A stretch of DNA of 64,000 nt, from the IMG/VR virus record IMGVR_UViG_3300032294_002877, positions 32,001-96,000 of that record; one strand, given 5' to 3'. Source of the DNA: a virus. Made by a program: the position numbers and the translations under genes. The number at the start of each line of letters is the position of its first letter. Position 1 is the stretch's first letter. Shown piece by piece: positions 27,972 through 39,814 of this stretch. The notes beneath the pieces were generated by a model, which was given only the letters and a program-made list of their open reading frames with translations, was not told where the DNA came from and made no database searches.

Positions 27972-30662
27972 ATGAAGTTGGCAGACAGGACAATTGAGAC
28001 TCACAGTGCTGGTGTTGCTAGTACGAACCAGTTTAGCATTGCTCAAACCAGCAAAATGTTTAAGATTTTGTCGGATTCTTTGTATTCCGATAAGGTTATG
28101 GCGGTCATTCGTGAACTGTCTACTAATGCTTATGACAGTCACGTTAGTGCTGGCAATAAGAATCCTTTTAAGGTAACTCTGCCCACAACGGGCAATCCAA
28201 ATTTCTGCGTAAGAGATTACGGTACTGGTCTTAGTCAGGCAGATATGGAGGAACTGTATACAACATACGGTGCAAGCAATAAGAATGATAGCAATGATTT
28301 TGTAGGTTGCTTGGGTCTTGGCAGCAAGAGTCCGTTTGCCTATACCAAGAGTTTTACTACTGCATCTTATTTTAACGGCAAAAAGTATACCTACATTGCC
28401 GCTATTGATGATAACGGTGTTCCCACTCTGAACCTGTTTAGCACAACAGATACAAATGAGCCTAATGGTCTTGAGATTAGTTTTGCTGTTAAGCAACACG
28501 ATTTTCATGAGTTTAGCAACAAGGCTATGCGTATCTTCCACTATTTTAGAATGAAGCCGATTCTCGAAGGAGGAATCCACAACCACCTGCAAGACCATAA
28601 GTATAGCAATAGCAATATTGTTATTAGTGGAGACGGTTGGAGAGTTTGCAGACTGAATAATGGATATGAATTGTTTCCGAATCATAGTCACAAGATTGAG
28701 AGTGGTATTGTGGCTATCATGGGCAATATCGCTTATCCTGTTCAGTCTAACCAACTTGTTGGTGAAGAGAAACAGGAGCAAACAAACGATGCTATTCAAC
28801 GATGGAATCGTGCTTTCCAAAAAGCCGATATTGATTCGTGGAAAACTTTCGTTAGCGAAATTCTTAATCAAGGCTTGTATCTTGAACTTGAATTTGGCAT
28901 CGGTGAATTGGAGATGGATGTTAGCCGCGAAGGTTTGCAGTATACCAAACAGGTCAAGAGAACTCTGCGTGAAAAGACTCAGGAAATTTTCTTGGAGTTG
29001 AAGAGTACATTTAGTGAGAAAATTGCTGCTGCTAAAACCAAGGTAGAGGCTATCACAACATATTATACTCTTAATGATCTTGCTGGAGGTTGGGGCGTTG
29101 GTGCTTCATGGACAGATTCTAATGGTAAGAGTCATCCTATTAATTCTGGCGAGGACTTGGATTATAAGATTCCTGCCGGTAAGAGTCTGTATGTTTTTAA
29201 TTATAAGAGTGCCGGATACCGATCAAGGCGACTTGTTGCGTTGACCGATAAGATTCATCACGAAACTCTTACGGGTAAGGGTACATACTACTGGAATAAT
29301 ACCAAGAAGTCTGGCGGTATAAAATTCTTCCTGTGCGATGTTAAGGGCGAAGAAAGTGCCAAGAAGATCGTAACACGATTCTGTAATCAGAATGATTGTT
29401 TTGCTTATCTTTTGATGGATACTAAGGATCACACAAAGTGCGACGAGGGTTTTGATAAACTGATTGAGGATGTTGGACAGTCAAATCTACTCAAGGTTTC
29501 AGACTACAAGCATCTTACACAGAGTACCGGACCTCGTAAAACGTACACTCGTAATGCCAAAGGCAGCGTTAGCGACCAAGATGTATTCTATATCTATGGC
29601 GCATCTAAAGATGCCAAGGCAATCAGTAACCAATATAATGATGCTGAGTATCTTAGTATGCTGTCTGAAGATGAACTAGAAGATTTTTTGGAGCAGGATG
29701 AGATAGTGTATGTTCCAATGCTGCGATATGCTAGTGCATCTCTTGAGTACCCGAGCATTAATAGTATTGCTGGTGTGATCAAACAAGAAGCATACAAGGG
29801 ATTAGTCAAGCAACTTTTCGGGTCCAATAAGATTTATGCTATCAAAACTGCGTTCGCTGACAAGTTGAAGAAGGATGGATATAATCTTGTTGATTTTAAT
29901 ACTTTCTTGAAGAATCAACTCAAGAAGATTAATAGTAAAAAGTTTGAGCCTATGGAAACATTTAATTCCGTAGTCAAATACTGCAAGTCTGAATGGGAGA
30001 AGGAAGAAAACCGTAAGAACGGCAGCAATTATTACTATAACAGACTCCCGTCAACAGATAAACAGTTTTTGTTTCACGCTTTAAACCTGTTTGGACTCAA
30101 GTATGCCGATTACATTAAAAACGATAAGTTGGTCAAGGCTCTTGACGATACTATGCTGATTGAGTTCTTTGCCGAGACTGTTCATTGTTCAGTGTTTAAT
30201 ATTCGCAAGTTCTCAGAGTCAGACTACTTTGATCACATGAATAAGATATTCCAGGCTAACGGTATGTCTAGTATTAATAGCAAAGATATTAGAGACACTA
30301 CCGTGGCGTATGGACATCTGATTGGTATCTGTAATAACTTGTATAAAACATCCGATACCGATAATGCTAAGGAGTATATCTCTCTTATCAAGCCATCAAT
30401 TGATACGAAGTATACTCTGCCTAAGATCAGTGAGATTCGTGATAGTATTCGCAATGAACTAGATAAGAATCCTATGCTGAAGTTTATCATATCCACAAAT
30501 CTTAGAGCATCAAGTATTAGGGATCTTGTTGTATCCAATCCTATTAGCCAACTTCATAGTGATGGATATTGGGGGAATAGATCGGAGGATAAATGGTATA
30601 CTGCTATGGATAACAATATGGTCGATTTGTTCAGGGTTCAATTGAGTAGTTTGATCAAGTGA
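27972..30662 (+). CDS. rIIA: rIIA-like protein (GHKL/HATPase N-terminus)
   Basis: LYSDKVMAVIRELSTNAYDSH, RDYGTGLS, GCLGLGSKSPFAY; followed by rIIB; start at ATG 27972 after GGAG. Confidence 0.9.
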   Translation: MKLADRTIETHSAGVASTNQFSIAQTSKMFKILSDSLYSDKVMAVIRELSTNAYDSHVSAGNKNPFKVTLPTTGNPNFCVRDYGTGLSQADMEELYTTYGASNKNDSNDFVGCLGLGSKSPFAYTKSFTTASYFNGKKYTYIAAIDDNGVPTLNLFSTTDTNEPNGLEISFAVKQHDFHEFSNKAMRIFHYFRMKPILEGGIHNHLQDHKYSNSNIVISGDGWRVCRLNNGYELFPNHSHKIESGIVAIMGNIAYPVQSNQLVGEEKQEQTNDAIQRWNRAFQKADIDSWKTFVSEILNQGLYLELEFGIGELEMDVSREGLQYTKQVKRTLREKTQEIFLELKSTFSEKIAAAKTKVEAITTYYTLNDLAGGWGVGASWTDSNGKSHPINSGEDLDYKIPAGKSLYVFNYKSAGYRSRRLVALTDKIHHETLTGKGTYYWNNTKKSGGIKFFLCDVKGEESAKKIVTRFCNQNDCFAYLLMDTKDHTKCDEGFDKLIEDVGQSNLLKVSDYKHLTQSTGPRKTYTRNAKGSVSDQDVFYIYGASKDAKAISNQYNDAEYLSMLSEDELEDFLEQDEIVYVPMLRYASASLEYPSINSIAGVIKQEAYKGLVKQLFGSNKIYAIKTAFADKLKKDGYNLVDFNTFLKNQLKKINSKKFEPMETFNSVVKYCKSEWEKEENRKNGSNYYYNRLPSTDKQFLFHALNLFGLKYADYIKNDKLVKALDDTMLIEFFAETVHCSVFNIRKFSESDYFDHMNKIFQANGMSSINSKDIRDTTVAYGHLIGICNNLYKTSDTDNAKEYISLIKPSIDTKYTLPKISEIRDSIRNELDKNPMLKFIISTNLRASSIRDLVVSNPISQLHSDGYWGNRSEDKWYTAMDNNMVDLFRVQLSSLIK

Positions 30663-30666
30663 GAAC

Positions 30667-30694
30667 TTGACAAGTCTGCTGGTTGTTGTAGAAT
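30667..30694 (+). promoter_or_regulatory. sigma70-type promoter for rIIB
   Basis: TTGACA-16nt-TAGAAT. Confidence 0.75.
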
Positions 30695-30736
30695 ATGCTA
30701 ATCACAGGTATCGAAATCACACTAAGGAGATGAAAA

Positions 30737-31621
30737 ATGGCCGTTCCGTTTATGTTTGTTGATGGTAATTTGACTCTGGTTCTTAATAATAGAACCTATC
30801 AGGTTTTGCCGGATCATATTAATTATAAGATGATTCTGCAAGTGCTTCCGACTGCAACTTCAGAAGAGTTGCTGGAAATTGTGGATATTGAAAAGGCTGT
30901 TTCGGTTTATTCCGATGGTCAGGTAGAAATTAAGAATGGTCAGGTTATGTATGCTGGCGAAGTTGTTCATGGCAGCATCAGCAAGCGTATTCTGGAGTTT
31001 ATGAGTAAGGGTCTGCCTTTCCAGCCCCTCGTTAACTTCCTCAATAATCTGATGGAGAATCCTAGTATGCAAAGCCAGAAGGAACTATATGATTTCCTTG
31101 AGCATGAGAATCTGCCTATTACTGAGGATGGACATTTCTTGGCATACAAGGCTGTTCGCGGTGACTATAAAGACAAGTATCGCGGAGTATTTGATAATAG
31201 GGTTGGTCAAGTTGTTACCATGCAACGTGCAAAGGTTGATGATAATCGTAGCGTAGGATGTTCTCAGGGTCTTCATGCTGGGGCATTAAACTATGTTGCT
31301 GGTTACGGTAGCGTTGAGCATGGTGATCGTATTGTGATCGTCAAGATTAATCCGCGTGATGTTGTGAGTGTTCCTAGCGATTGTAATTGCGAGAAACTTC
31401 GCACCTGTCGTTATGAAGTTGTTGGCGAGTACCAAGGTGAACTAAAAAAGCCATTGTACTCGTCTAACTTTAATGAGGACTCGTATGAGGACGATGAGGA
31501 CGATTATGATCGTGAATACGATTGGGGATGGAATGAAGATGAGGATGAAGAAGATGAGAATTTTGATGCGTATGCCGATGAAGATGAAGACGATTATGAC
31601 CCAGATGGATTTTACAACTAA
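30737..31621 (+). CDS. rIIB: rIIB-like protein with acidic tail
   Basis: PITEDGHFLAYKAV, CSQGLH, VKINPRDVVSVP.D...KLR.CRYEVV. Confidence 0.92.
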   Translation: MAVPFMFVDGNLTLVLNNRTYQVLPDHINYKMILQVLPTATSEELLEIVDIEKAVSVYSDGQVEIKNGQVMYAGEVVHGSISKRILEFMSKGLPFQPLVNFLNNLMENPSMQSQKELYDFLEHENLPITEDGHFLAYKAVRGDYKDKYRGVFDNRVGQVVTMQRAKVDDNRSVGCSQGLHAGALNYVAGYGSVEHGDRIVIVKINPRDVVSVPSDCNCEKLRTCRYEVVGEYQGELKKPLYSSNFNEDSYEDDEDDYDREYDWGWNEDEDEEDENFDAYADEDEDDYDPDGFYN

Positions 31622-31630
31622 ATAAACTTT

Positions 31631-31680
31631 GGGGTAGTCTGGTGACTGGAGCGATCCGGTGGTTCGATTCCGCCGCCTCT
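31631..31680 (+). ncRNA. miniature tRNA-like element lacking a normal anticodon arm
   Basis: GGGGT/GCCTC closing stem; AGTC-TGGT-GACT; GGA-GCGA-TCC; T arm GGTGG-TTCGATT-CCGCC; followed by T run. Confidence 0.55.
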
Positions 31681-31750
31681 TTTTGATGCCGATTATGATG
31701 ATAATGTTTATTGTCCCGGTATCTTCATAGGAAAGATGAAGGAAGTAGTT

Positions 31751-32857
31751 ATGTTTAATGATGTTTTGGACTTTAATCCCTTCGATAAGAATAACGATGT
31801 CTATAATAGAAGATATGCTAATAGAAGATGTGATTTTCTAAACGCTTTCAAACAAAGCCATATTTATTGCTATAATGGTAATCCTCGCAAGAAGATCAGC
31901 AGTATGAATCATACTAATGATGCTAATGAGGCTATTGATGCGAATAGAGATAAGGGTGCTGACGTTTATTTTTATGTAAATGGTGGTCGCAAACTGTACG
32001 CTATCAAACAGTTTACTTGTTGCTTTTGCGATATGGATGCTGGTCGTGATGATCAGGGCAAGTATTTTAAGCCCAGCGTTGTAATGACCAAGAAGAAGCA
32101 GTTCCTAAAGAAGATTAATGAATTTTCGGTAAAGCCTAGTTGGGTTATTGATACTCGTAATGGGTATCAGTGCTACTGGATTTTTGACGATGCTAGTCGC
32201 AAGATTGTTGGTGGAAATAAAACATTTTGGAACGGTCTACAGAAGAAACTGGTAAATTACTTTGGTGGTGATCCAAGGGCTATCAAGCCGAATCAGATTT
32301 ATCGTGTTCCTTATACTTGGTGGCGTAAAGGTTGGGAGGGCAAGGCTCCATACTTTACTAGTATTCTTCCCGGTAGCACTGGCGCTCCAATAAATGTTGC
32401 TGATCTTAAAGCGGCACTTACTGGTCAACCAGCAACGCTACAGATCATTCCTGAAAAATGTAGTGATGAATGGTATAAGGGATATGCCAAGGCTTATAAG
32501 CAGTCTGATATTACGGGCGTTCCAGTATCAGCAAATGTTGCTGCTGATATTCTGAATTCTATGCAGACATTAAATGCTAAAGCAAAAGCGTTTTGTAATT
32601 ATGCCGGAGATGAAGATGACGATGTTGAGGTTGCTCACGGTGATCCGATGCCGGTGTATGCTGGTCGCGTGAGCGAACCGGAGTCGATCCCTGACGAGGA
32701 TTTAAATCTTGACGGCCAGCAGACACGACTCTTAAAAACGGTGGTCGAGTTCCTAAACCAAGTGAGTACACCACTCTACTTTAGTAATAATCGATTCCTA
32801 AGTAGTGCGGCCAAAGACTTGGCTAATCAGATCAGCGACAAGTTTTGCATAGGCTAA
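31751..32857 (+). CDS. RepB-like (AEP-related) DNA primase domain protein
   Basis: CFCDMD, PSWVIDTRNGYQCYW, D..AIKPNQIYRVP; start after AAGGAAG RBS (track start 31736). Confidence 0.65.
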   Translation: MFNDVLDFNPFDKNNDVYNRRYANRRCDFLNAFKQSHIYCYNGNPRKKISSMNHTNDANEAIDANRDKGADVYFYVNGGRKLYAIKQFTCCFCDMDAGRDDQGKYFKPSVVMTKKKQFLKKINEFSVKPSWVIDTRNGYQCYWIFDDASRKIVGGNKTFWNGLQKKLVNYFGGDPRAIKPNQIYRVPYTWWRKGWEGKAPYFTSILPGSTGAPINVADLKAALTGQPATLQIIPEKCSDEWYKGYAKAYKQSDITGVPVSANVAADILNSMQTLNAKAKAFCNYAGDEDDDVEVAHGDPMPVYAGRVSEPESIPDEDLNLDGQQTRLLKTVVEFLNQVSTPLYFSNNRFLSSAAKDLANQISDKFCIG

Positions 32858-32859
32858 AG

Positions 32860-33288
32860 ATGAATGATCCATATGACGATGAGCCATACAACGATTATGA
32901 TGACTATGATGATAGTCACGACTATGATTACAGTCAGTCAGATTGGAAAAAGTTTTATTTCAAATTTGACATTAATCCATACGGATCATTATCAGATTGG
33001 TTCAAAAAAATGATGGAGGATTTGATAAACTATAAAACGCCAACTCTTCCAGAGGGTTTTTCTCCTGTTTCGTTTCCTGTGAATGATTTGTTTTCCCAAT
33101 ATACAGCGAGTGGGAGCAATCCCCTCCTGTATTTGGGGAACAATCATTACAATGAGCCGATATGGAAGAAGAAAGATTTTATCCAAGACAAACTAGGAAT
33201 AGCGTATGTTTTACATTTACAGAGTAATGCTGGGCATTTTATTAGTCAGCCGAGATATTATAAAGGGCTTTTTGACATACTTAATTAG
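32860..33288 (+). CDS. hypothetical protein with D/Y-rich N-terminus
   Basis: ORF. Confidence 0.6.
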   Translation: MNDPYDDEPYNDYDDYDDSHDYDYSQSDWKKFYFKFDINPYGSLSDWFKKMMEDLINYKTPTLPEGFSPVSFPVNDLFSQYTASGSNPLLYLGNNHYNEPIWKKKDFIQDKLGIAYVLHLQSNAGHFISQPRYYKGLFDILN

Positions 33289-33296
33289 GTTTGTAT

Positions 33297-33734
33297 ATGA
33301 ATAAAGATAACTGGTATATAGTAGATGATATAGATGAATTTGTTTTATCCACAAGAAAATTGATCTACAACCATTTTGGCAAAGAAAAATCTAATCAGTC
33401 TAAATTTGATTCTCTTATGCTAACAGAGATTAATCCAGACGAACAAGAAGAATTTGATCAAGTCTTAACTCAAGAAGAATCTTTGCTAATAGCAAAAAAT
33501 ATTTTGAAAAAACAAACGCATAAAAAAAGCAATGAAGTAAGATATTTGGTTTCTGATAATCTCTACCGTGATATGGTAGAAAGTTTGAATGATCGTATGG
33601 TTAGTAATATATTGAATAGTTTAGTTAATAAGGGATACTTAGAAAGTGGATACGATGCCGAATCAAACGATTTCGTATTTTGGATAAAAGAAGACCAAGA
33701 TGAGCAAAATAAAGAAAAACCAGAAACCGATTGA
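33297..33734 (+). CDS. hypothetical protein
   Basis: ORF; C-terminal YDAESNDFVFW resembles WDSDANDMIFW in 12644-13039. Confidence 0.6.
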   Translation: MNKDNWYIVDDIDEFVLSTRKLIYNHFGKEKSNQSKFDSLMLTEINPDEQEEFDQVLTQEESLLIAKNILKKQTHKKSNEVRYLVSDNLYRDMVESLNDRMVSNILNSLVNKGYLESGYDAESNDFVFWIKEDQDEQNKEKPETD

Positions 33735-34059
33735 ATACGACATTCATCTAAAATATAAATGCAAAAACTGCTGTCAAGACCACTGGCTATCTTTTAACGA
33801 AGCATCTACAAAAAATTTCAAAATTGTTTGTTATTGTGGTAATGTTTTTGGAGTTAAAAGAGTAAGTAAATGCAAAATAATCTATACTAAATCAAACACA
33901 GTTAATAGTAAAATCATAAAATCATGCCTAAGTGTTTTATTAGGCTATGGCTATGATAAGGAGAGATCAGAACAAATCATTAGAGAAATATTATCGGCTT
34001 CACCAGAAATAAAACTTGCGGACTTAATAAAAAAATCTTTGGTAAAACTTGGAGAATAA
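33700..34059 (+). CDS. zinc ribbon fused to RuvA C-terminal (domain III)-like helix bundle
   Basis: CKNC..CYC N-terminus; LSVLLGYGYDKERSEQII...LADLIKKSLVKL; directly upstream of ruvB. Confidence 0.6.
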   Translation: MSKIKKNQKPIEYDIHLKYKCKNCCQDHWLSFNEASTKNFKIVCYCGNVFGVKRVSKCKIIYTKSNTVNSKIIKSCLSVLLGYGYDKERSEQIIREILSASPEIKLADLIKKSLVKLGE

Positions 34060-34060
34060 A

Positions 34061-34975
34061 ATGGCAACGAATTTTCGACCCTCTTGCTTTAGCGATATAG
34101 TTGGACAAACAGAATCTATTAACAGACTCAAAATCATAACATACGGATGCAAAATGTCCGATGGTGTTATGCCACATATTCTAATTGATGGGCCTCCAGG
34201 TCTTGGTAAAACAACAATAGCAAGTGCTATTGCTAATGAGTTAAATGTTAATCTGTATACGATTAATGCTGCTAATATTAGAGCAATCAAAAATATTCTC
34301 CCATATATCATGGGTTTATCTCCACGATCAGTTTTATTTATAGATGAAATTCATAGACTACCAAAGATTGTCGAAGAATTTTTGTATCCCATCATGGAAG
34401 ATTTTGTATTAAATATTACTGTAAAAAATGAGGAAGATAAAGACGTTCCAGAAAAAATTGATATTCCTCAGTTTACTCTGGTAGGAGCAACAACAAGCGG
34501 TGGAACTTTAAGCCAGCCTTTCTATGATAGATTTACTATCAAAGAACATTTGAGTTTCTATAAAGACGAAGAATTAGCTAAACTTGCCCGGTTGAACGCA
34601 AATAGACTCGGACTAATTGTTTCTGACGAGGACTTATTAGAAATAGCAAGAAGAAGCAAAGGAACGCCACGAATTCTAAATGCCAGACTACAATGGTATA
34701 AAAATTTTACCGCCTATCATAGTGGTAAAACTATAACAGTAGAGGAGGTATTTAATAGTCAAGGCATCGACAAGGATGGTCTGGATAATTATGATAGATT
34801 ATATCTACAAATTTTACATAAAGCCAAGGGAAGTCCTCTTGGATTAAAGAGTATATCATCAATGACAGGTATAGCAATAGACACAATTGAAAACAGTATT
34901 GAGCCGTTTCTTTTGAGAAAAGGATTTGTTCAAAGGACACAAAAGGGAAGGATTATAGGTTCATATAAGATATGA
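34061..34975 (+). CDS. ruvB: Holliday junction branch migration ATPase RuvB
   Basis: RPSCFSDIVGQ, GPPGLGKTT, FIDEIHRL, GATT, DRF, GTPRI, IEPFL..TQKGR. Confidence 0.95.
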   Translation: MATNFRPSCFSDIVGQTESINRLKIITYGCKMSDGVMPHILIDGPPGLGKTTIASAIANELNVNLYTINAANIRAIKNILPYIMGLSPRSVLFIDEIHRLPKIVEEFLYPIMEDFVLNITVKNEEDKDVPEKIDIPQFTLVGATTSGGTLSQPFYDRFTIKEHLSFYKDEELAKLARLNANRLGLIVSDEDLLEIARRSKGTPRILNARLQWYKNFTAYHSGKTITVEEVFNSQGIDKDGLDNYDRLYLQILHKAKGSPLGLKSISSMTGIAIDTIENSIEPFLLRKGFVQRTQKGRIIGSYKI

Positions 34976-35361
34976 AATACAAGACATGGATTGTTGCATT
35001 ATTTTTTATTTTTTGTACAACTATATCACTAGCAGACAATAAATTTCCTATTTTTGTTGATAGTTTGTTGGATGCTATTGTAGAATCAGAAAATTCTAAA
35101 AAAGATGTGCTGCTAATCTTTAGTGCTGACTGGTGTAAGTTTTGCAGAGTAATGAAGAAAGATATAGATAATAATATACGTGATTTAAACGGTATAATTA
35201 TTAGTTATGTGGATGTTGATAAAGATCCAGAACTAGCAAAAGAATTTAAAGTCAAACAGTTACCGGATTACATAATACTAAGGAATAAGATAGAGATAAA
35301 AAGAAAAGTAGGATACAAAAATTTTGAAACTTTTAAACGATGGTTAAAAGATAATGATTAA
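34972..35361 (+). CDS. exported thioredoxin-like protein
   Basis: signal peptide; FSADWCKFC. Confidence 0.85.
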   Translation: MKYKTWIVALFFIFCTTISLADNKFPIFVDSLLDAIVESENSKKDVLLIFSADWCKFCRVMKKDIDNNIRDLNGIIISYVDVDKDPELAKEFKVKQLPDYIILRNKIEIKRKVGYKNFETFKRWLKDND

Positions 35362-35659
35362 AGAATCAGTATTTATAGTTTTTTCTATATGTGTAATGGC
35401 ATTATTTTTTCTGGTAGGCTATACTCTAGGGAGAATGTCAGCAAACTATGGTGTATATGATGGTGATATTAAATCGTCAATAGTTGATAACAGTAAGAAA
35501 AAACAACAAAAGAACAATATAACAATTGACGACACTAAATATGTTGTTGATATTAAAACGGATGATATTGAGAAAAAGTATCATTCATTAGGAGATAAAA
35601 AAACATCAACAGACAACATCAGTAGTTCTGTAGATAAACTCAAAAACTTAAAGAGGTAA
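35354..35659 (+). CDS. single-pass membrane protein upstream of actin-like gene
   Basis: N-terminal TM helix, charged C-terminus. Confidence 0.65.
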   Translation: MIKESVFIVFSICVMALFFLVGYTLGRMSANYGVYDGDIKSSIVDNSKKKQQKNNITIDDTKYVVDIKTDDIEKKYHSLGDKKTSTDNISSSVDKLKNLKR

Positions 35660-35664
35660 TAATT

Positions 35665-36669
35665 ATGGCAGGAAAAGGTTGTGACGTAGGCACTAGTTTT
35701 ATTGTTTTAGCAAAAGAAACACCTAATGGAATCGAATACAAAGATTTCCGTGATGCTTTTTATGTTATCAAGCCTACGACCCCAGTTTCTGTCAAGATGA
35801 TCGAAAAAGGATTAACAGGCAAAGTTTTTATCAAAGATACTGATGGATCATTTGTTCTTTTGGGCAAAGACGCTATAGAAAAAGCAGTGGAAAGAAACGA
35901 TAATGCTAAAAGACCAATGAAAAAAGGCGTTGTTTCCGCACAAGAAAAAGACGCAAAAAGAATATTAGCGTTTATTCTAAAAGAAGTTGCTGGCACAGCA
36001 TCAGAACCAAATGAGAAACTTATTTTTTGCGTACCAGCACAACCAGTAGATGTTGAAGATGATGATTTTGATATAGGCTATCATGAAGATGTATTAAAGT
36101 CTATATTCCAAGAATGTGGATATGATGCTAGAAGTATCAATGAAGCGGAAGCAATCTGTTATGCGGAACTGGAGGCTGAGGACTATACTGGAATTTCTGT
36201 ATCGGCAGGATCTGGTATGCAGAATGTCTGCGTTATGCTTAATGGTGAACCAACCGTAAAATTCAGCACCACTAAATCTGGAGATTTTATCGACAGAATG
36301 GCCGCTGTTGCAACAGGAGAAAAGGATACTGTAGTTCAAGCGGAGAAAGAGGGTGGTGAATTTGTTATTGGTCAACCTAATGATAATCCAGTATTAGCTG
36401 CCGTATCTGCATATTATGAAAGATTAATTGACTATACAACAAAACAATTAGCAGCATCATTAACAAATCATAAGTCTTTACCAAAATTTAAGCAACCATT
36501 AAGGATTGTGGTAGCCGGAGGAACATCATTAGCCAAAGGTTATGTTGAAATGTTTCATAAAAAATTATTAGAGAATAACTTCCCCTTACCTATTAAAGAA
36601 GTTGTTCATGCCGCTGATCCTTTACATGCGGTAGCAAAAGGCTGTTTAATAGCAGCTAAGATATTGTGA
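35665..36669 (+). CDS. actin-like ATPase (MreB/MamK/FtsA superfamily)
   Basis: phosphate-1 DVGTS, connect-1 INEAEAI, phosphate-2 SAGSGMQN, adenosine VAGGTS, connect-2 AVAKGC. Confidence 0.88.
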   Translation: MAGKGCDVGTSFIVLAKETPNGIEYKDFRDAFYVIKPTTPVSVKMIEKGLTGKVFIKDTDGSFVLLGKDAIEKAVERNDNAKRPMKKGVVSAQEKDAKRILAFILKEVAGTASEPNEKLIFCVPAQPVDVEDDDFDIGYHEDVLKSIFQECGYDARSINEAEAICYAELEAEDYTGISVSAGSGMQNVCVMLNGEPTVKFSTTKSGDFIDRMAAVATGEKDTVVQAEKEGGEFVIGQPNDNPVLAAVSAYYERLIDYTTKQLAASLTNHKSLPKFKQPLRIVVAGGTSLAKGYVEMFHKKLLENNFPLPIKEVVHAADPLHAVAKGCLIAAKIL

Positions 36670-36980
36670 TGTTTGGCATATTTAAACTAAGATATGCCAC
36701 AAGATCGCCTAAATGGTCAAAAGTTAGAGAAAACCATCTGAAAGAAAATCCACGCTGTTGTGCGTGCGGTAAAAATAAGAAGCTAGAAGTTCATCATATA
36801 GTTCCTGTGCATATTGATTCTTCCAGGGAACTTGATCCTAGCAATCTAGTCACACTATGTGCAGATCCTTGTCATATAGTATTTGGCCATTTATTAGACT
36901 TTAAAAGTTGGAATATTGATGTTATAAAAGATTGTGAGGTGTATTATAATAGAGTAAAAAATAAACCCTTTAAAAAATAA
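36666..36980 (+). CDS. HNH endonuclease
   Basis: CCACG...LEVHHIVP...NLVTLC..CH. Confidence 0.88.
   Translation: MMFGIFKLRYATRSPKWSKVRENHLKENPRCCACGKNKKLEVHHIVPVHIDSSRELDPSNLVTLCADPCHIVFGHLLDFKSWNIDVIKDCEVYYNRVKNKPFKK
36938..36950 (+). promoter_or_regulatory. GGTGTAT-class putative promoter for protease pair
   Basis: GGTGTATTATAAT about 40 nt upstream of the 36992 start. Confidence 0.5.
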
Positions 36981-36991
36981 AAGGGATTTTG

Positions 36992-37750
36992 ATGAGATAC
37001 ATTTTAATTCTTATTATAACATTTTTTTGTTCTACTATATCAGCTGGAACAATTGATCCGTCAACTCCTCAACAAAAGTATCTTGAGTACGGAAAAAAAT
37101 TCAGATGCATAGCCAGACTGTGCGGTAAAGATCGTGCTGGAACAACGTATTGCGCATCTGCCGTCGCTATTAAACCAAACTGGTTCCTGACAGCGGCTCA
37201 TGTCGTTAAAGATATTGAAACGTGTCATATTACCATAGAAAACAGAGAGAAAATATGTGTAGATAAAATATATTGTCATAATAAATTTGATGATAATATT
37301 TTTGGATATAATGATATTGCTTTGGGATATGTAGCTCAAGGCTTAGATCTAGATTTTTATCCAGAATTATATACAGACAAGGATGAGACTGGTAAGATAT
37401 GTTCAATGTCTGGTTATGGTTTAACCGGTACGTTTCTAACTGGATCAAAAGATTCTGATTCTAATCGCAGAGCCGGGTCGAATATTATCGACGGGATACA
37501 AAAACAATTATTGATTTGCACACCATCTAAAAGTCACCAGAACTCTACAGAGCTAGAATTTCTTATTGCTAGTGGAGATAGTGGTGGCGGTTTATTTATT
37601 GATTCAAAATTAGCCGGAATTAATTCTTGCGTAATAGCCGCTGATCGTAAACCAGACTCATCATATACCGATGAGAGCGGACACACAAGAGTTAGTGAAC
37701 ATACTGAATGGATTAAATCTATTATAAATAGTAACTCAAATGAGAAATAA
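36992..37750 (+). CDS. secreted trypsin-like serine protease (S1)
   Basis: signal peptide; LTAAH, NDIAL, GDSGG triad. Confidence 0.93.
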   Translation: MRYILILIITFFCSTISAGTIDPSTPQQKYLEYGKKFRCIARLCGKDRAGTTYCASAVAIKPNWFLTAAHVVKDIETCHITIENREKICVDKIYCHNKFDDNIFGYNDIALGYVAQGLDLDFYPELYTDKDETGKICSMSGYGLTGTFLTGSKDSDSNRRAGSNIIDGIQKQLLICTPSKSHQNSTELEFLIASGDSGGGLFIDSKLAGINSCVIAADRKPDSSYTDESGHTRVSEHTEWIKSIINSNSNEK

Positions 37751-38675
37751 AGAATACAGCCTATTACCTTTTATTAGAGAAGATATTCACGGGTTATCCC
37801 CGGACGATGCTCAAATATTTGGTTGGGAAATAACAAAATTTGATATACCAAATTTATGGAAATATTCTACAGGCAAAAGTGTTAAGATAGCTGTGATAGA
37901 TACGGGATGCGATTTGGATCATCCAGATATTAAAAATAATATTATTCAAGGTAAGAACTTCATAGATAAAAATAAAGATCCGTATGACGATAATGGTCAT
38001 GGATCTCATTGTGCCGGAACAATTGCCGCGGAGAACAACGGGACGGGTATGGTTGGGGTCGCCCCTCAAGCAAAGATTATGCCTGTCAAAGTTTTGAATA
38101 GTGCTGGTCAGGGAGGTTTACAAAATATAGTCAATGGTATTATTTGGGCTGTTGATGCTGGGGCGGATATTCTTTCATTAAGTTTAGGTTCTACATCTCC
38201 AGCTATTCCTTTAGAAAATGCTATCAATTATGCTGCATCAAAAGGATGTATAGTATTTTGTGCTGCTGGAAATAATGGAGTAAATTCAGATATTACATAT
38301 CCAGCAAAATACGACCATACTATAGCCATAGGAGCCATAGACAAAAACCTAGAACGTACCCAGTTTACCTGTAGCGGTGAGACGCTTGATTTTCTAGCAC
38401 CAGGGCATGATATTTTAAGTTGTGTACCTGGAGGACATTACGCTTTAATGAGCGGAACCAGTATGAGTACTCCGTTTGCTGTAGGGTGTGCTGCTCTATT
38501 ATTAGACTATACTAGGCAAGTCAAATATTCAGCAATTAATGATATATTAAAAAATACAGAAGATTATATTAATATTTTTAGGAAGAAAAGCAAAAGCTTA
38601 AAAGATCCAAAATTTTCTGGACAGAAGAAGTACGAGGGGTATGGAATACTATACCCTTTTCTTGCTGGTAGATAG
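37740..38675 (+). CDS. subtilisin-like serine protease (S8)
   Basis: VIDTG, HGSH, AAGN, GTSMS. Confidence 0.95.
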   Translation: MRNKEYSLLPFIREDIHGLSPDDAQIFGWEITKFDIPNLWKYSTGKSVKIAVIDTGCDLDHPDIKNNIIQGKNFIDKNKDPYDDNGHGSHCAGTIAAENNGTGMVGVAPQAKIMPVKVLNSAGQGGLQNIVNGIIWAVDAGADILSLSLGSTSPAIPLENAINYAASKGCIVFCAAGNNGVNSDITYPAKYDHTIAIGAIDKNLERTQFTCSGETLDFLAPGHDILSCVPGGHYALMSGTSMSTPFAVGCAALLLDYTRQVKYSAINDILKNTEDYINIFRKKSKSLKDPKFSGQKKYEGYGILYPFLAGR

Positions 38676-39125
38676 TCAGGGCTTGTATACGTTATAAATA
38701 TTTTCTATTGCTTCTTTATCGTACTTACCGCTATATCTTAATCTGGCTTTTTCTTTCTTTTGCCATGCTTCTATATCTCTATAGTAGCTATTAATTTGGC
38801 GACCATTAAAGTAAGTTCTAATTTTTTTATTTTTATTATCCAGCTGCATAGAGTACGCTGTTTGATTATTAATATTTGCTTGAGATTCATTTAGTAAATA
38901 ATTACCTTGACTATTAATAAGTGCAGCTTCACCATTTAATAATCCTTGTTGTTGGGTTGATGCATAGTTATTATTGAATAAAATTCCTTGCAATGCCAGA
39001 TCGGCGGCCTGAAAATTATTTGGATATTGTGCCATAGAGATTTGACAATATAGTATAATTGCAATAGAAATAAAGTATTTTGTTAAGTGTTTCATTGAAA
39101 TCTCTTTTTTGTATGTGTCAACCAC
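38676..39125 (-). CDS. putative secreted Q/N-rich protein
   Basis: signal peptide; ALINSQGNYLLNESQANINNQ repeat-like helix. Confidence 0.65.
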   Translation of the reverse strand: MVDTYKKEISMKHLTKYFISIAIILYCQISMAQYPNNFQAADLALQGILFNNNYASTQQQGLLNGEAALINSQGNYLLNESQANINNQTAYSMQLDNKNKKIRTYFNGRQINSYYRDIEAWQKKEKARLRYSGKYDKEAIENIYNVYKP

Positions 39126-39166
39126 TCATAATAATAAACAGGCCAATTGAAAAAGCAACAAAAAAA

Positions 39167-39814
39167 TTATGCAAGTTTGATTAGAACTCCTAGTTCGTGG
39201 AAAATCTTAAACAATACGTATCTATCGCTATTAATATTTTGTTTGCTTATATAAGTTTCTACGGCTGCTTTTACACCAGGTAGATCTGGTCGTTCATAAT
39301 CATGAAATACAATACAGCCTCCCACAGATAGTCTTGGGTATACTAGAGATAAACTATCAAAAATACTATCATAGAAGTCTCCATCCAAAAAACCAAAAGA
39401 GATACTATCAGGGAGATCCTTGGGACCAATGTTGCTAAACCAACCTTTAGTAATAATTGGCGGAACCAAACCATTTTGTTCAAAATTAGCAATCAAAACA
39501 TCTTGTGTTGTCTTAAGTGTGCCAGATTTCCATCCTGTATTTTTTTCATAGTCACTCAATTCTGGGAGCCCCTCGAAAGAATCATAAACATATAATTTTT
39601 TATGAGATAATTTATTATCTAACATCATTCTGAGATATTTAGACGATTCCCCAACAAAACAACCAAACTCAACAACATCTCCTAGTATATTATTATTAAT
39701 AGTATTTTCTAATAACGATATGAGCATTCTAATTTGATCTTTAGATATGATACTTGCATCAATGCATTGATTAGGTCTTCGTAGTAAAAGATTAGCGGTT
39801 TGAAAGTTTATCAT
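39167..39814 (-). CDS. TylF/MycF-family O-methyltransferase
   Basis: GDVVEFGCFVG, YDSFEGLP, KGWF, LDGDFY, FHDY. Confidence 0.92.
   Translation of the reverse strand: MINFQTANLLLRRPNQCIDASIISKDQIRMLISLLENTINNNILGDVVEFGCFVGESSKYLRMMLDNKLSHKKLYVYDSFEGLPELSDYEKNTGWKSGTLKTTQDVLIANFEQNGLVPPIITKGWFSNIGPKDLPDSISFGFLDGDFYDSIFDSLSLVYPRLSVGGCIVFHDYERPDLPGVKAAVETYISKQNINSDRYVLFKIFHELGVLIKLA

Follow-up and report, generated by a model that had tools for sequence, protein, structure and literature searches.

Does a large phage encode an actin cytoskeleton of its own and, if so, to what would its filaments be attached? The question is raised by two adjacent genes in a 64,000-nucleotide stretch of viral DNA, called the window below, which comprises bases 32001-96000 of the 180,460-bp IMG/VR record IMGVR_UViG_3300032294_002877 (rated complete by CheckV; 35% G+C). 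The downstream gene encodes an actin-like protein of 334 amino acids (aa), and the upstream one a putative membrane protein of 101 aa, to which we refer as the partner. To our knowledge, the known phage cytoskeletons are tubulin-based (PhuZ, TubZ), together with one prophage actin that has a DNA adaptor (AlpC/AlpA); a tubulin homologue was looked for in the present phage genome and none was found. A reading of the window made from its letters only (the sequence-only reading) had proposed that the two genes specify a phage actin paired with a membrane-anchored protein. Here we report that, judged by sequence, the actin-like protein is a full-length member of the Volactin family and its upstream neighbour is a genuine conserved partner, and we consider it probable, if well short of certain, that the two form an ATP-driven actin filament which the partner, acting as an adaptor, tethers to the cytoplasmic membrane and which organises the infected cell. 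We found no paper on phage volactins, on this adaptor or on the planctomycete volactin-type module described below.

The actin-like protein and its fold

The family of the actin-like protein was identified by its match to the Pfam profile Volactin (PF25216), which reached 196.6 bits (E 9.7e-58) at a curated gathering cut-off of 35 bits and extended over residues 4-331 of the protein and positions 3-321 of the 321 in the profile. The match was repeated on the whole genome with 196.2 bits, and a Haloferax genome searched as a control also exceeded the cut-off. The Salactin match stayed below its own cut-off, and MreB_Mbl (PF06723) matched residues 59-132 only, with 30.7 bits, far under the Volactin score. 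We rejected an identity as MreB because this match is partial and because no membrane-binding amphipathic helix is present at the N-terminus of the protein, which starts six residues before the phosphate-1 Asp and enters strand 1 at residue 3. A phmmer search against PDB sequences returned nothing significant (MreB at E 0.38), and PHROGs holds no family for the protein.

All five actin-fold motifs that the sequence-only reading had pointed out in this gene are present (Table 1). Their conservation was judged on an alignment of 34 diverse family members, in which D7, G9, R83, E160, G182, G184, G206, D207, D210, K228, G285, G286 and G326 are invariant, and the phage protein has all the invariant or nearly invariant columns of the family (D-x-G-T, R-P-M, Y-H, N-E-A, S-x-G-x-G-M-x-N, S-G-D-x-x-D and G-G-T-S). 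It had also been remarked, correctly, that the phosphate-2 Asp is replaced by Ser: Ser180 occupies the position of this Asp in MreB, ParM and actin. As judged by the alignment, this Ser is a family-wide signature and no defect of the present copy.

The founding member of the family, volactin (VolA, HVO_2015) of Haloferax volcanii, forms dynamic filaments which span the cytoplasm and touch the membrane with their tips; it is encoded on the chromosome, is apparently essential, and acts in the change of cell shape from rod to disk (Schiller et al. 2024, PMC10869688). The phage protein shares with it the membership in PF25216, the size class and the S-x-G-x-G-M phosphate-2 signature, and filament tips that touch the membrane fit a tethering adaptor. 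However, the Haloferax protein is archaeal and has no described adaptor, whereas the phage protein is viral and has a dedicated membrane-anchored partner.

An AlphaFold2 model of the actin, built from 34 diverse relatives, had a mean predicted local distance difference test score (pLDDT) of 96.7. Its best PDB neighbours by Z were MamK (28.2), BeeR (27.8), MreB (26.8) and F-actin (about 26), aligned over 280-297 residues at about 3 Å, and the top 50 PDB entries by Z consisted of MamK, BeeR, MreB/Mbl, F-actin and Arp (Z 24.7-28.2). Foldseek gave TM-scores of 0.66-0.75 for the top filament formers in the PDB, while EutJ and PilM ranked lower in the structure list. The viral structure library BFVD contained no close relative of the model, and the best hits in it were Hsp70 homologues and gp506 of Bacillus phage G, at a TM-score of about 0.6. 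In the model, the fold is closest to that of polymerising actins and not to kinases or Hsp70; clustering with non-polymerising ASKHA kinases or Hsp70-type proteins, which the sequence-only reading had named as an outcome that would speak against it, was not what we found, as the nearest structures are polymerising actins. The same reading had likened the protein to Mad28- or MamK-like actins rather than to MreB. This holds only loosely, for structure, where MamK comes marginally ahead of MreB at about 20% identity; the sequence is that of a Volactin. The structural likeness to MamK (PDB 5ljv) and BeeR (PDB 8r2n) covers 293-297 residues at 2.9-3.1 Å; the identity, however, is 21-22%, no magnetosome genes lie nearby, and there is no Pfam or phmmer support for either.

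A search of a collection of 5.8 billion proteins found 1731 relatives of the actin at E<=1e-3, the best 120 of which were 78-100% identical and lay on contigs of up to 235 kb, and clustering at 50% gave 916 representatives of the actin family. INPHARED contributed two distant hits only (35% identity), both from huge uncultured phages; no close relative was found among 185,579 species genomes searched with the phage actin, nor was a close cultured relative of the phage record found. Viral members of the family bear the automatic database name 'Volactin domain-containing protein', and some family clusters in the Atlas have Acidobacteriota as their commonest phylum. Over 50 related loci, the median identity was 78% for the actin, 72% for the RuvB-like protein, 57% for the S8 subtilase, 53% for the trypsin-like protease and 45% for the partner, the actin being the best conserved among the neighbourhood genes recovered in more than 10 loci; the rIIB-like gene had a median of 84%, in only 8 loci.

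Approximately 15 of 150 family representatives are about 700 aa long, and in the four cases checked (L053:3992-6112, P0137, P0147, P0175) Pfam confirmed a Hint/LAGLIDADG intein in the actin gene. Two insertion sites were seen, one within the phosphate-2 loop after S180 (L053) and the other just ahead of the S-G-D-W-I-D motif (P0137). The usual targets of intein homing are essential motifs in important proteins.

A conserved partner directly upstream of the actin

The spacer between the two genes is 5 nt long (partner stop TAA at 35657-35659, actin ATG at 35665), and an AAGAGG Shine-Dalgarno sequence lies 8 nt 5' of the actin ATG. These coordinates, as well as the single hydrophobic stretch (V6-G26) in the partner open reading frame (ORF), agree with the sequence-only reading, according to which the actin follows a single-pass membrane ORF after 5 nt. 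Neither Pfam nor PHROGs has a recognised family for the partner. Among its relatives, the order of parts is nevertheless constant: a short acidic N-tail is followed by a hydrophobic helix, a variable linker and a conserved C-terminal block with the pattern I-x-I-D-x-x-K-x-V-x-x-I-x-T-x-x-L-E-K-K-Y-x-x-L-G ... S-V-N-K-L-K-N-L-K. We propose that this tail domain, I56-R101, is the actin-binding part. The charge flanking the helix is -1.03 on the N-terminal and +0.91 on the C-terminal side, and the C flank is the higher one in 30 of 32 homologues; by the positive-inside rule this predicts a topology with the N-terminus outside and the C-terminus inside, which would place the conserved tail in the cytoplasm.

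To follow the pair through related phages, we used a hidden Markov model (HMM) of the tail block; in 45 of 52 IMG/VR loci it placed the partner immediately before the actin. Five of the seven exceptions (L016, L029-L032) have a cassette of opposite-strand genes, 4.4-6.6 kb long, between partner and actin; in the 2 contigs searched from the actin side, and in all four cassette loci reached from the partner side, the partner turned up beyond the cassette on the contig and strand of the actin, 4.4-6.6 kb upstream of it. The other two (L047 and L054), in which the identity of the actin is 55%, carry a transmembrane protein of 195 aa whose diverged tail ends R-E-K-L-S-K-L-K-S-K. When the search was started from the partner, the actin was downstream in 19 of 19 loci. 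Phage lineages whose actins are 40-55% identical have partners with varied N-terminal parts, and they keep the ...KL[KR]xL tail: at 52% actin identity (L143) the partner consists of a transmembrane helix and the tail, at 43% (L144) it is without a clear transmembrane helix and its tail reads A-I-D-K-L-R-Q-L-K-K, and at 40% (L145) it is a 245-aa coiled-coil protein ending K-V-S-K-L-R-N-L. The pairing of a phage actin with a membrane protein, for which the sequence-only reading had set conservation of the gene pair in related phages as the test beforehand, is thus borne out in both search directions.

In the subclade with the cassette (L016, L029-L032, = L157-L160), the intervening genes are cupin-like, methyltransferase-like and a large unknown ORF, and long minus-strand ORFs of V-G-V-G-V repeats lie downstream. 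At L055:3222-3992, which belongs to the 45 loci, a GIY-YIG homing-endonuclease gene stands between partner and actin, and the partner tail is in two frames, so the partner gene is possibly disrupted there.

How partner and actin may fit together was modelled on the homologue at locus L003, in which the actin is 87% and the partner 50% identical to the window proteins. We made use of the natural in-frame read-through of this locus, in which the partner is followed by its stop codon, taken as Gly, by one further codon and by the actin, and based the model on a block alignment. In the model, residues 4-33 form a transmembrane helix at pLDDT 93-98, the linker 36-64 is disordered (pLDDT <50), and the tail contains a beta strand (81-85) followed by a helix (90-97), with residues 71-90 at pLDDT 82-87. 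A lone five-residue strand predicted at such confidence suggests pairing with the actin domain, which we take as a hint only.

A probably related pair in Planctomycetota

A genome scan with the bacterial subgroup of the family gave 434 hits, nearly all of them in metagenome-assembled genomes of Planctomycetota, and 62 of 151 sampled Planctomycetota genomes carry 1-4 volactin-type copies above the Pfam cut-off, with scores of 265-300 bits against Pfam Volactin. The gene upstream of these actins (loci L057-L136) encodes a soluble protein of 230-480 aa without a Pfam domain, which is made up of an N-domain (L-x-x-L-A-K-R-G-x-K-x-V-K-V-L-D), a coiled coil, a Gly-rich linker and a tail (L-F ... L-E-S-N-x-x-x-V-x-V-K-x-x-K-A-G-G-V-x-x-x-L-A-K-L-K-x-L). 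HMMs of the tail and of the N-domain matched 79 and 74 of the 80 loci, respectively. The bacterial pair resembles that of the phage in the actin family, in the gene order with the adaptor directly upstream and in the adaptor tail, but it differs in that the bacterial adaptor is large and soluble whereas that of the phage has about 100 aa and a transmembrane helix.

The likeness of the two tails (LESN...LAKLKxL in planctomycetes, LEKKY...VNKLKNLK in the phage) was compared by hhalign, which matched the final 34 columns of the phage partner to the planctomycete tail (E 5e-4, probability 31.7%). This modest support is reinforced because both tails form the extreme C-terminus of a gene that lies directly upstream of a volactin-family gene. 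Moreover, in at least 5 of 150 family representatives the N-domain and coiled coil of the bacterial partner are naturally joined to the actin domain in a single protein, and one of these proteins (P0159) is 40% identical to the L121 partner (E 7e-23); the N-domain HMM matched five fused representatives and none of the phage loci. By the Rosetta-stone principle, such fusions are evidence of a physical cooperation between the actin and the bacterial partner. A further locus, L147 (54% G+C), has a like arrangement, and its upstream tail ends S-S-T-V-E-R-L-K-Q-I-K. The phage tail motif had also seemed to be present in the N-terminal extensions of P0140, P0148 and P0169, and this was dropped, as neither the tail HMM nor the N-domain HMM confirmed it.

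Phage and planctomycete actins are 35-38% identical, and in a quick IQ-TREE tree the phage actins, with other phage-context sequences, formed a well-supported clade apart from the planctomycete one, which argues against a recent capture. From these comparisons, the adaptor-plus-volactin pair appears to be older than the phages studied here. The frequent occurrence of family and adaptor in Planctomycetota is compatible with a planctomycete host of the phage and is not evidence for one. The actin of 'Ca. Uab amorphum' is another protein, of a eukaryote-like type. Sets of 2-4 paralogues of the volactin family, sometimes in tandem, are frequent in Planctomycetota and other bacteria (G123:C10, G015:C116, G021:C137; L147:4001-6770), and P0145 combines two actin domains in one chain of 729 aa.

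A proposed membrane-tethered filament and its alternatives

In the mechanism that we favour, the volactin-family actin would bind ATP and most likely polymerise into dynamic filaments, while the single transmembrane helix of the partner would anchor the adaptor in the host cytoplasmic membrane, N-terminus outside and C-terminus in the cytoplasm. Beyond a flexible linker, the 46-residue tail, with its short beta segment and amphipathic KLKxLK helix, would bind the actin filament or its end. The actin itself lacks a membrane-binding element. Filaments would be nucleated at, or tethered to, the membrane in early or middle infection, the module being presumably expressed with the early/middle replication-recombination genes (rIIA/B, ligase, RuvB-like). 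It would probably hold or move the sites of phage replication or assembly with respect to the membrane, and the candidate cargoes are replication or recombination sites, capsids and the membrane itself. The module probably descends from, or shares ancestry with, the adaptor-plus-volactin pair of Planctomycetota, in which case the phage adaptor would have kept the tail and swapped the bacterial N-domain and coiled coil for a membrane anchor. Polymerisation, binding of the tail to actin, topology and cellular role are what we infer here.

The proposal has parallels among known filament systems. In ParR, the principle is that a C-terminal peptide or helix of the adaptor binds the filament. ParM-ParR, AlpC-AlpA, MamK-MamJ and MreB-RodZ share a design principle with the phage pair, in which the membrane anchor would take the role of adaptor. 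MreB-RodZ (e.g. PDB 2wus; MreB Z 24.9-26.8) is similar in that an actin homologue is linked to the membrane by a single-pass protein; unlike the proposed tail, RodZ binds through an N-terminal helix-turn-helix domain and in the opposite orientation, and MreB has a membrane-binding helix or loop of its own. With ParM/ParR and PhuZ/TubZ the phage pair would have in common a filament on a mobile element and a positioning function, but it differs from the former in having no centromere and no DNA-binding adaptor, and from the latter in that it has no tubulin and would be actin-based. AlpC/AlpA of the Corynebacterium glutamicum prophage CGP3 are likewise a phage-encoded actin and a co-encoded adaptor that function in viral replication (Donovan et al. 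2015, PMC4446434). The family of actin-like proteins to which AlpC is assigned is a different one, and the adaptor AlpA binds DNA and links that of the phage to the filament. A DNA-binding element was looked for in the phage adaptor (by Pfam and PHROGs, and among repeats in the module) and none was found.

Several observations weigh against the membrane-tethered filament. Polymerisation is deduced from the fold and from one archaeal relative, and the phosphate-2 Ser could mean slow or altered ATP hydrolysis. The fusion model was built on the L003 homologue with an artificial two-residue linker, and it gives at most a hint of docking. Upstream of the actin, the distant huge phages LR745208 and LR756511 lack a transmembrane partner, and the relative L146 has ClpP in its place. 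As regards ancestry, the phage-tail HMM found no planctomycete locus and the planctomycete-tail HMM reached phage partners only at E 0.58, so that the two tails, compared over a short alignment, are probably homologous rather than surely so.

Among the other explanations, the one we take most seriously, while still thinking it unlikely, is that the phage takes over the cytoskeleton of its host. The phage actin, its partner's tail or both would act on host volactin-type or MreB filaments, by co-polymerising with them, capping them or relocating them to the membrane through mimicry of the adaptor tail, and would thereby block division or reshape the cell. This overlaps with a tethered filament and depends on the host. 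The chromosomal occurrence of the family in many sampled Planctomycetota genomes, with a near-universal adaptor of similar tail, speaks for such a takeover, and volactin governs cell shape in Haloferax (PMC10869688). However, the phage genome has a G+C content of 35%, the phage and planctomycete actins fall into separate clades at the identity given above, and the presence of both components on the phage suggests a self-sufficient system. A bolder combination, to which we give slightly less credence still, would see an ancient module common to Planctomycetota and to a large clade of uncultured 180-235 kb phages; the phage anchor may capture host volactin filaments, which is conceivable because the tail has been retained, or the phage actin may use host adaptors, and the whole might be an actin-based counterpart of the PhuZ spindle which doubles as a takeover device in planctomycetes that lack FtsZ. 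Quite unlikely, in our view, is that mere synteny unites the genes, the small membrane protein having an unrelated task (e.g. exclusion, lysis timing or envelope remodelling) and the actin working alone. The partner has no recognised domain, among the genes around it are a thioredoxin with a signal peptide and a trypsin-like protease, and the adjacency is broken in one subclade; yet there the two genes co-occur in both search directions despite a cassette of 4-7 kb, the tail motif persists across phage lineages with differing N-terminal parts and resembles that of the planctomycete partner, which exists fused to actin, and the charge distribution predicts a cytoplasmic C-terminus.

That the actin-like protein is a non-polymerising ASKHA ATPase with a chaperone-like or regulatory function (of the EutJ, PilM or Hsp70 nucleotide-binding-domain type), in which the change of Asp to Ser reflects altered catalysis, we regard as improbable. 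The Ser itself, the Hsp70 homologues as nearest structures in the viral library and the appearance of EutJ and PilM lower in the PDB list would be consistent with it; but all top PDB ranks are filament actins with higher TM-scores than the viral Hsp70 proteins, the Ser is a trait of the Volactin family as a whole, the founding member of which forms polymers in vivo (PMC10869688), and actin filament systems typically include an adaptor that has a tail peptide. Hardly credible is a ParM-like segregation of a plasmid-like prophage genome. An actin with a small adaptor upstream does recall the gene order of parMR, alfAB and alpAC, but the present adaptor has a transmembrane helix and is without a DNA-binding fold, only two-copy repeats at chance level and no iteron- or centromere-like repeats were found in 32800-37100, and the genome has rIIA/rIIB and T4-like lytic features.

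That hundreds of large environmental phages keep a volactin-family actin at about 80% identity, together with a membrane anchor dedicated to it, implies an important function at the membrane during infection. The probable link to the planctomycete adaptor would give a handle on what volactin-type filaments attach to, and on which cytoskeleton is used by Planctomycetota, many of which have no FtsZ. With a putative binding peptide of about 30-46 residues and proteins of small size, the hypothesis lends itself to direct tests.

Gene neighbourhood and promoter-like sequences

The actin and partner genes sit inside a densely packed run of plus-strand genes (Table 1). The stops and starts of the genes upstream overlap (34049..35361), and their synteny recurs in L002, L003 and L143; the downstream genes (36666..38675) are syntenic in the related loci examined. 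The record also encodes rIIA, an ATP-dependent ligase and glycosyltransferases. Proteases recur beside phage volactins, being a trypsin-like protease and an S8 subtilase here and ClpP, next to the volactin gene, in L145 and L146.

Table 1. Genes and sequence features of the actin-partner locus, in window coordinates
Feature	Position	Strand	Basis or remark
RuvB-like AAA+ ATPase	34049-34975	+	Pfam; upstream context
Thioredoxin with signal peptide	34972-35361	+	Pfam; upstream context
Partner (adaptor) gene, 101 aa	35354-35659	+	ORF
Transmembrane helix V6-G26, conserved G-Y-x-x-G-[RK] end	35369..35431	+	Hydropathy maxima 2.0-3.1 in all relatives
GGTGTAT heptamer in partner linker, encodes G-V-Y	35450..35456	+	Candidate internal promoter element
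C-terminal tail domain I56-R101 (46 residues), ends in amphipathic S-V-D-K-L-K-N-L-K	35519..35656	+	Most conserved partner block
Volactin-family actin homologue, 334 aa	35665-36669	+	Pfam PF25216
Phosphate-1 motif D7-V-G-T-S	35683..35697	+	D7, G9 invariant, T10 nearly so
Connect-1 motif I158-N-E-A-E-A-I, catalytic-type Glu160	36136..36156	+	E160 invariant, N159 nearly so
Phosphate-2 motif S180-A-G-S-G-M-Q-N	36202..36225	+	S180 in at least 90% of members; G182, G184 invariant
Adenosine motif V283-A-G-G-T-S	36511..36528	+	G285, G286 invariant, T287 nearly so
Connect-2 motif A323-V-A-K-G-C	36631..36645	+	G326 invariant
HNH endonuclease	36666-36980	+	Pfam, PHROGs; downstream context
Trypsin-like protease with signal peptide	36989-37750	+	Pfam, PHROGs; downstream context
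S8 subtilase	37740-38675	+	Pfam, PHROGs; downstream context

The GGTGTAT motif noticed in the sequence-only reading at about 35450, inside the upstream ORF, is indeed there. The window contains 12 copies of this heptamer against 6.3 expected, a number that 4 of 100 shuffles reached, and its abundance alone is weakly above chance. Plus-strand copies make up ten of the 12, and six of them (20346, 22105, 25035, 36938, 57696, 62368) lie 29-51 nt before start codons and are followed by a TAtAAT-like sequence. In several relatives the heptamer stands 206-223 nt before the actin ATG, and in L016, L029, L030 and L032, where the partner is not adjacent, 42-43 nt before it. GGTGTAT may be part of a phage promoter, and an internal promoter which gives the actin its own transcript is possible; a sigma-70 promoter scan of 30500-39300 found 39 sites as compared with 36.8 expected, which is chance level.

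An ORF ending at 31621 is closely followed, at 31625-31685, by a hairpin that contains the sequence of a tRNA T-arm (GGTTCGATTCC) and, after it, by a U-run. ARAGORN and Rfam made no call for this tRNA-like hairpin (at about 31657), which looks like a terminator derived from, or mimicking, the 3' half of a tRNA.

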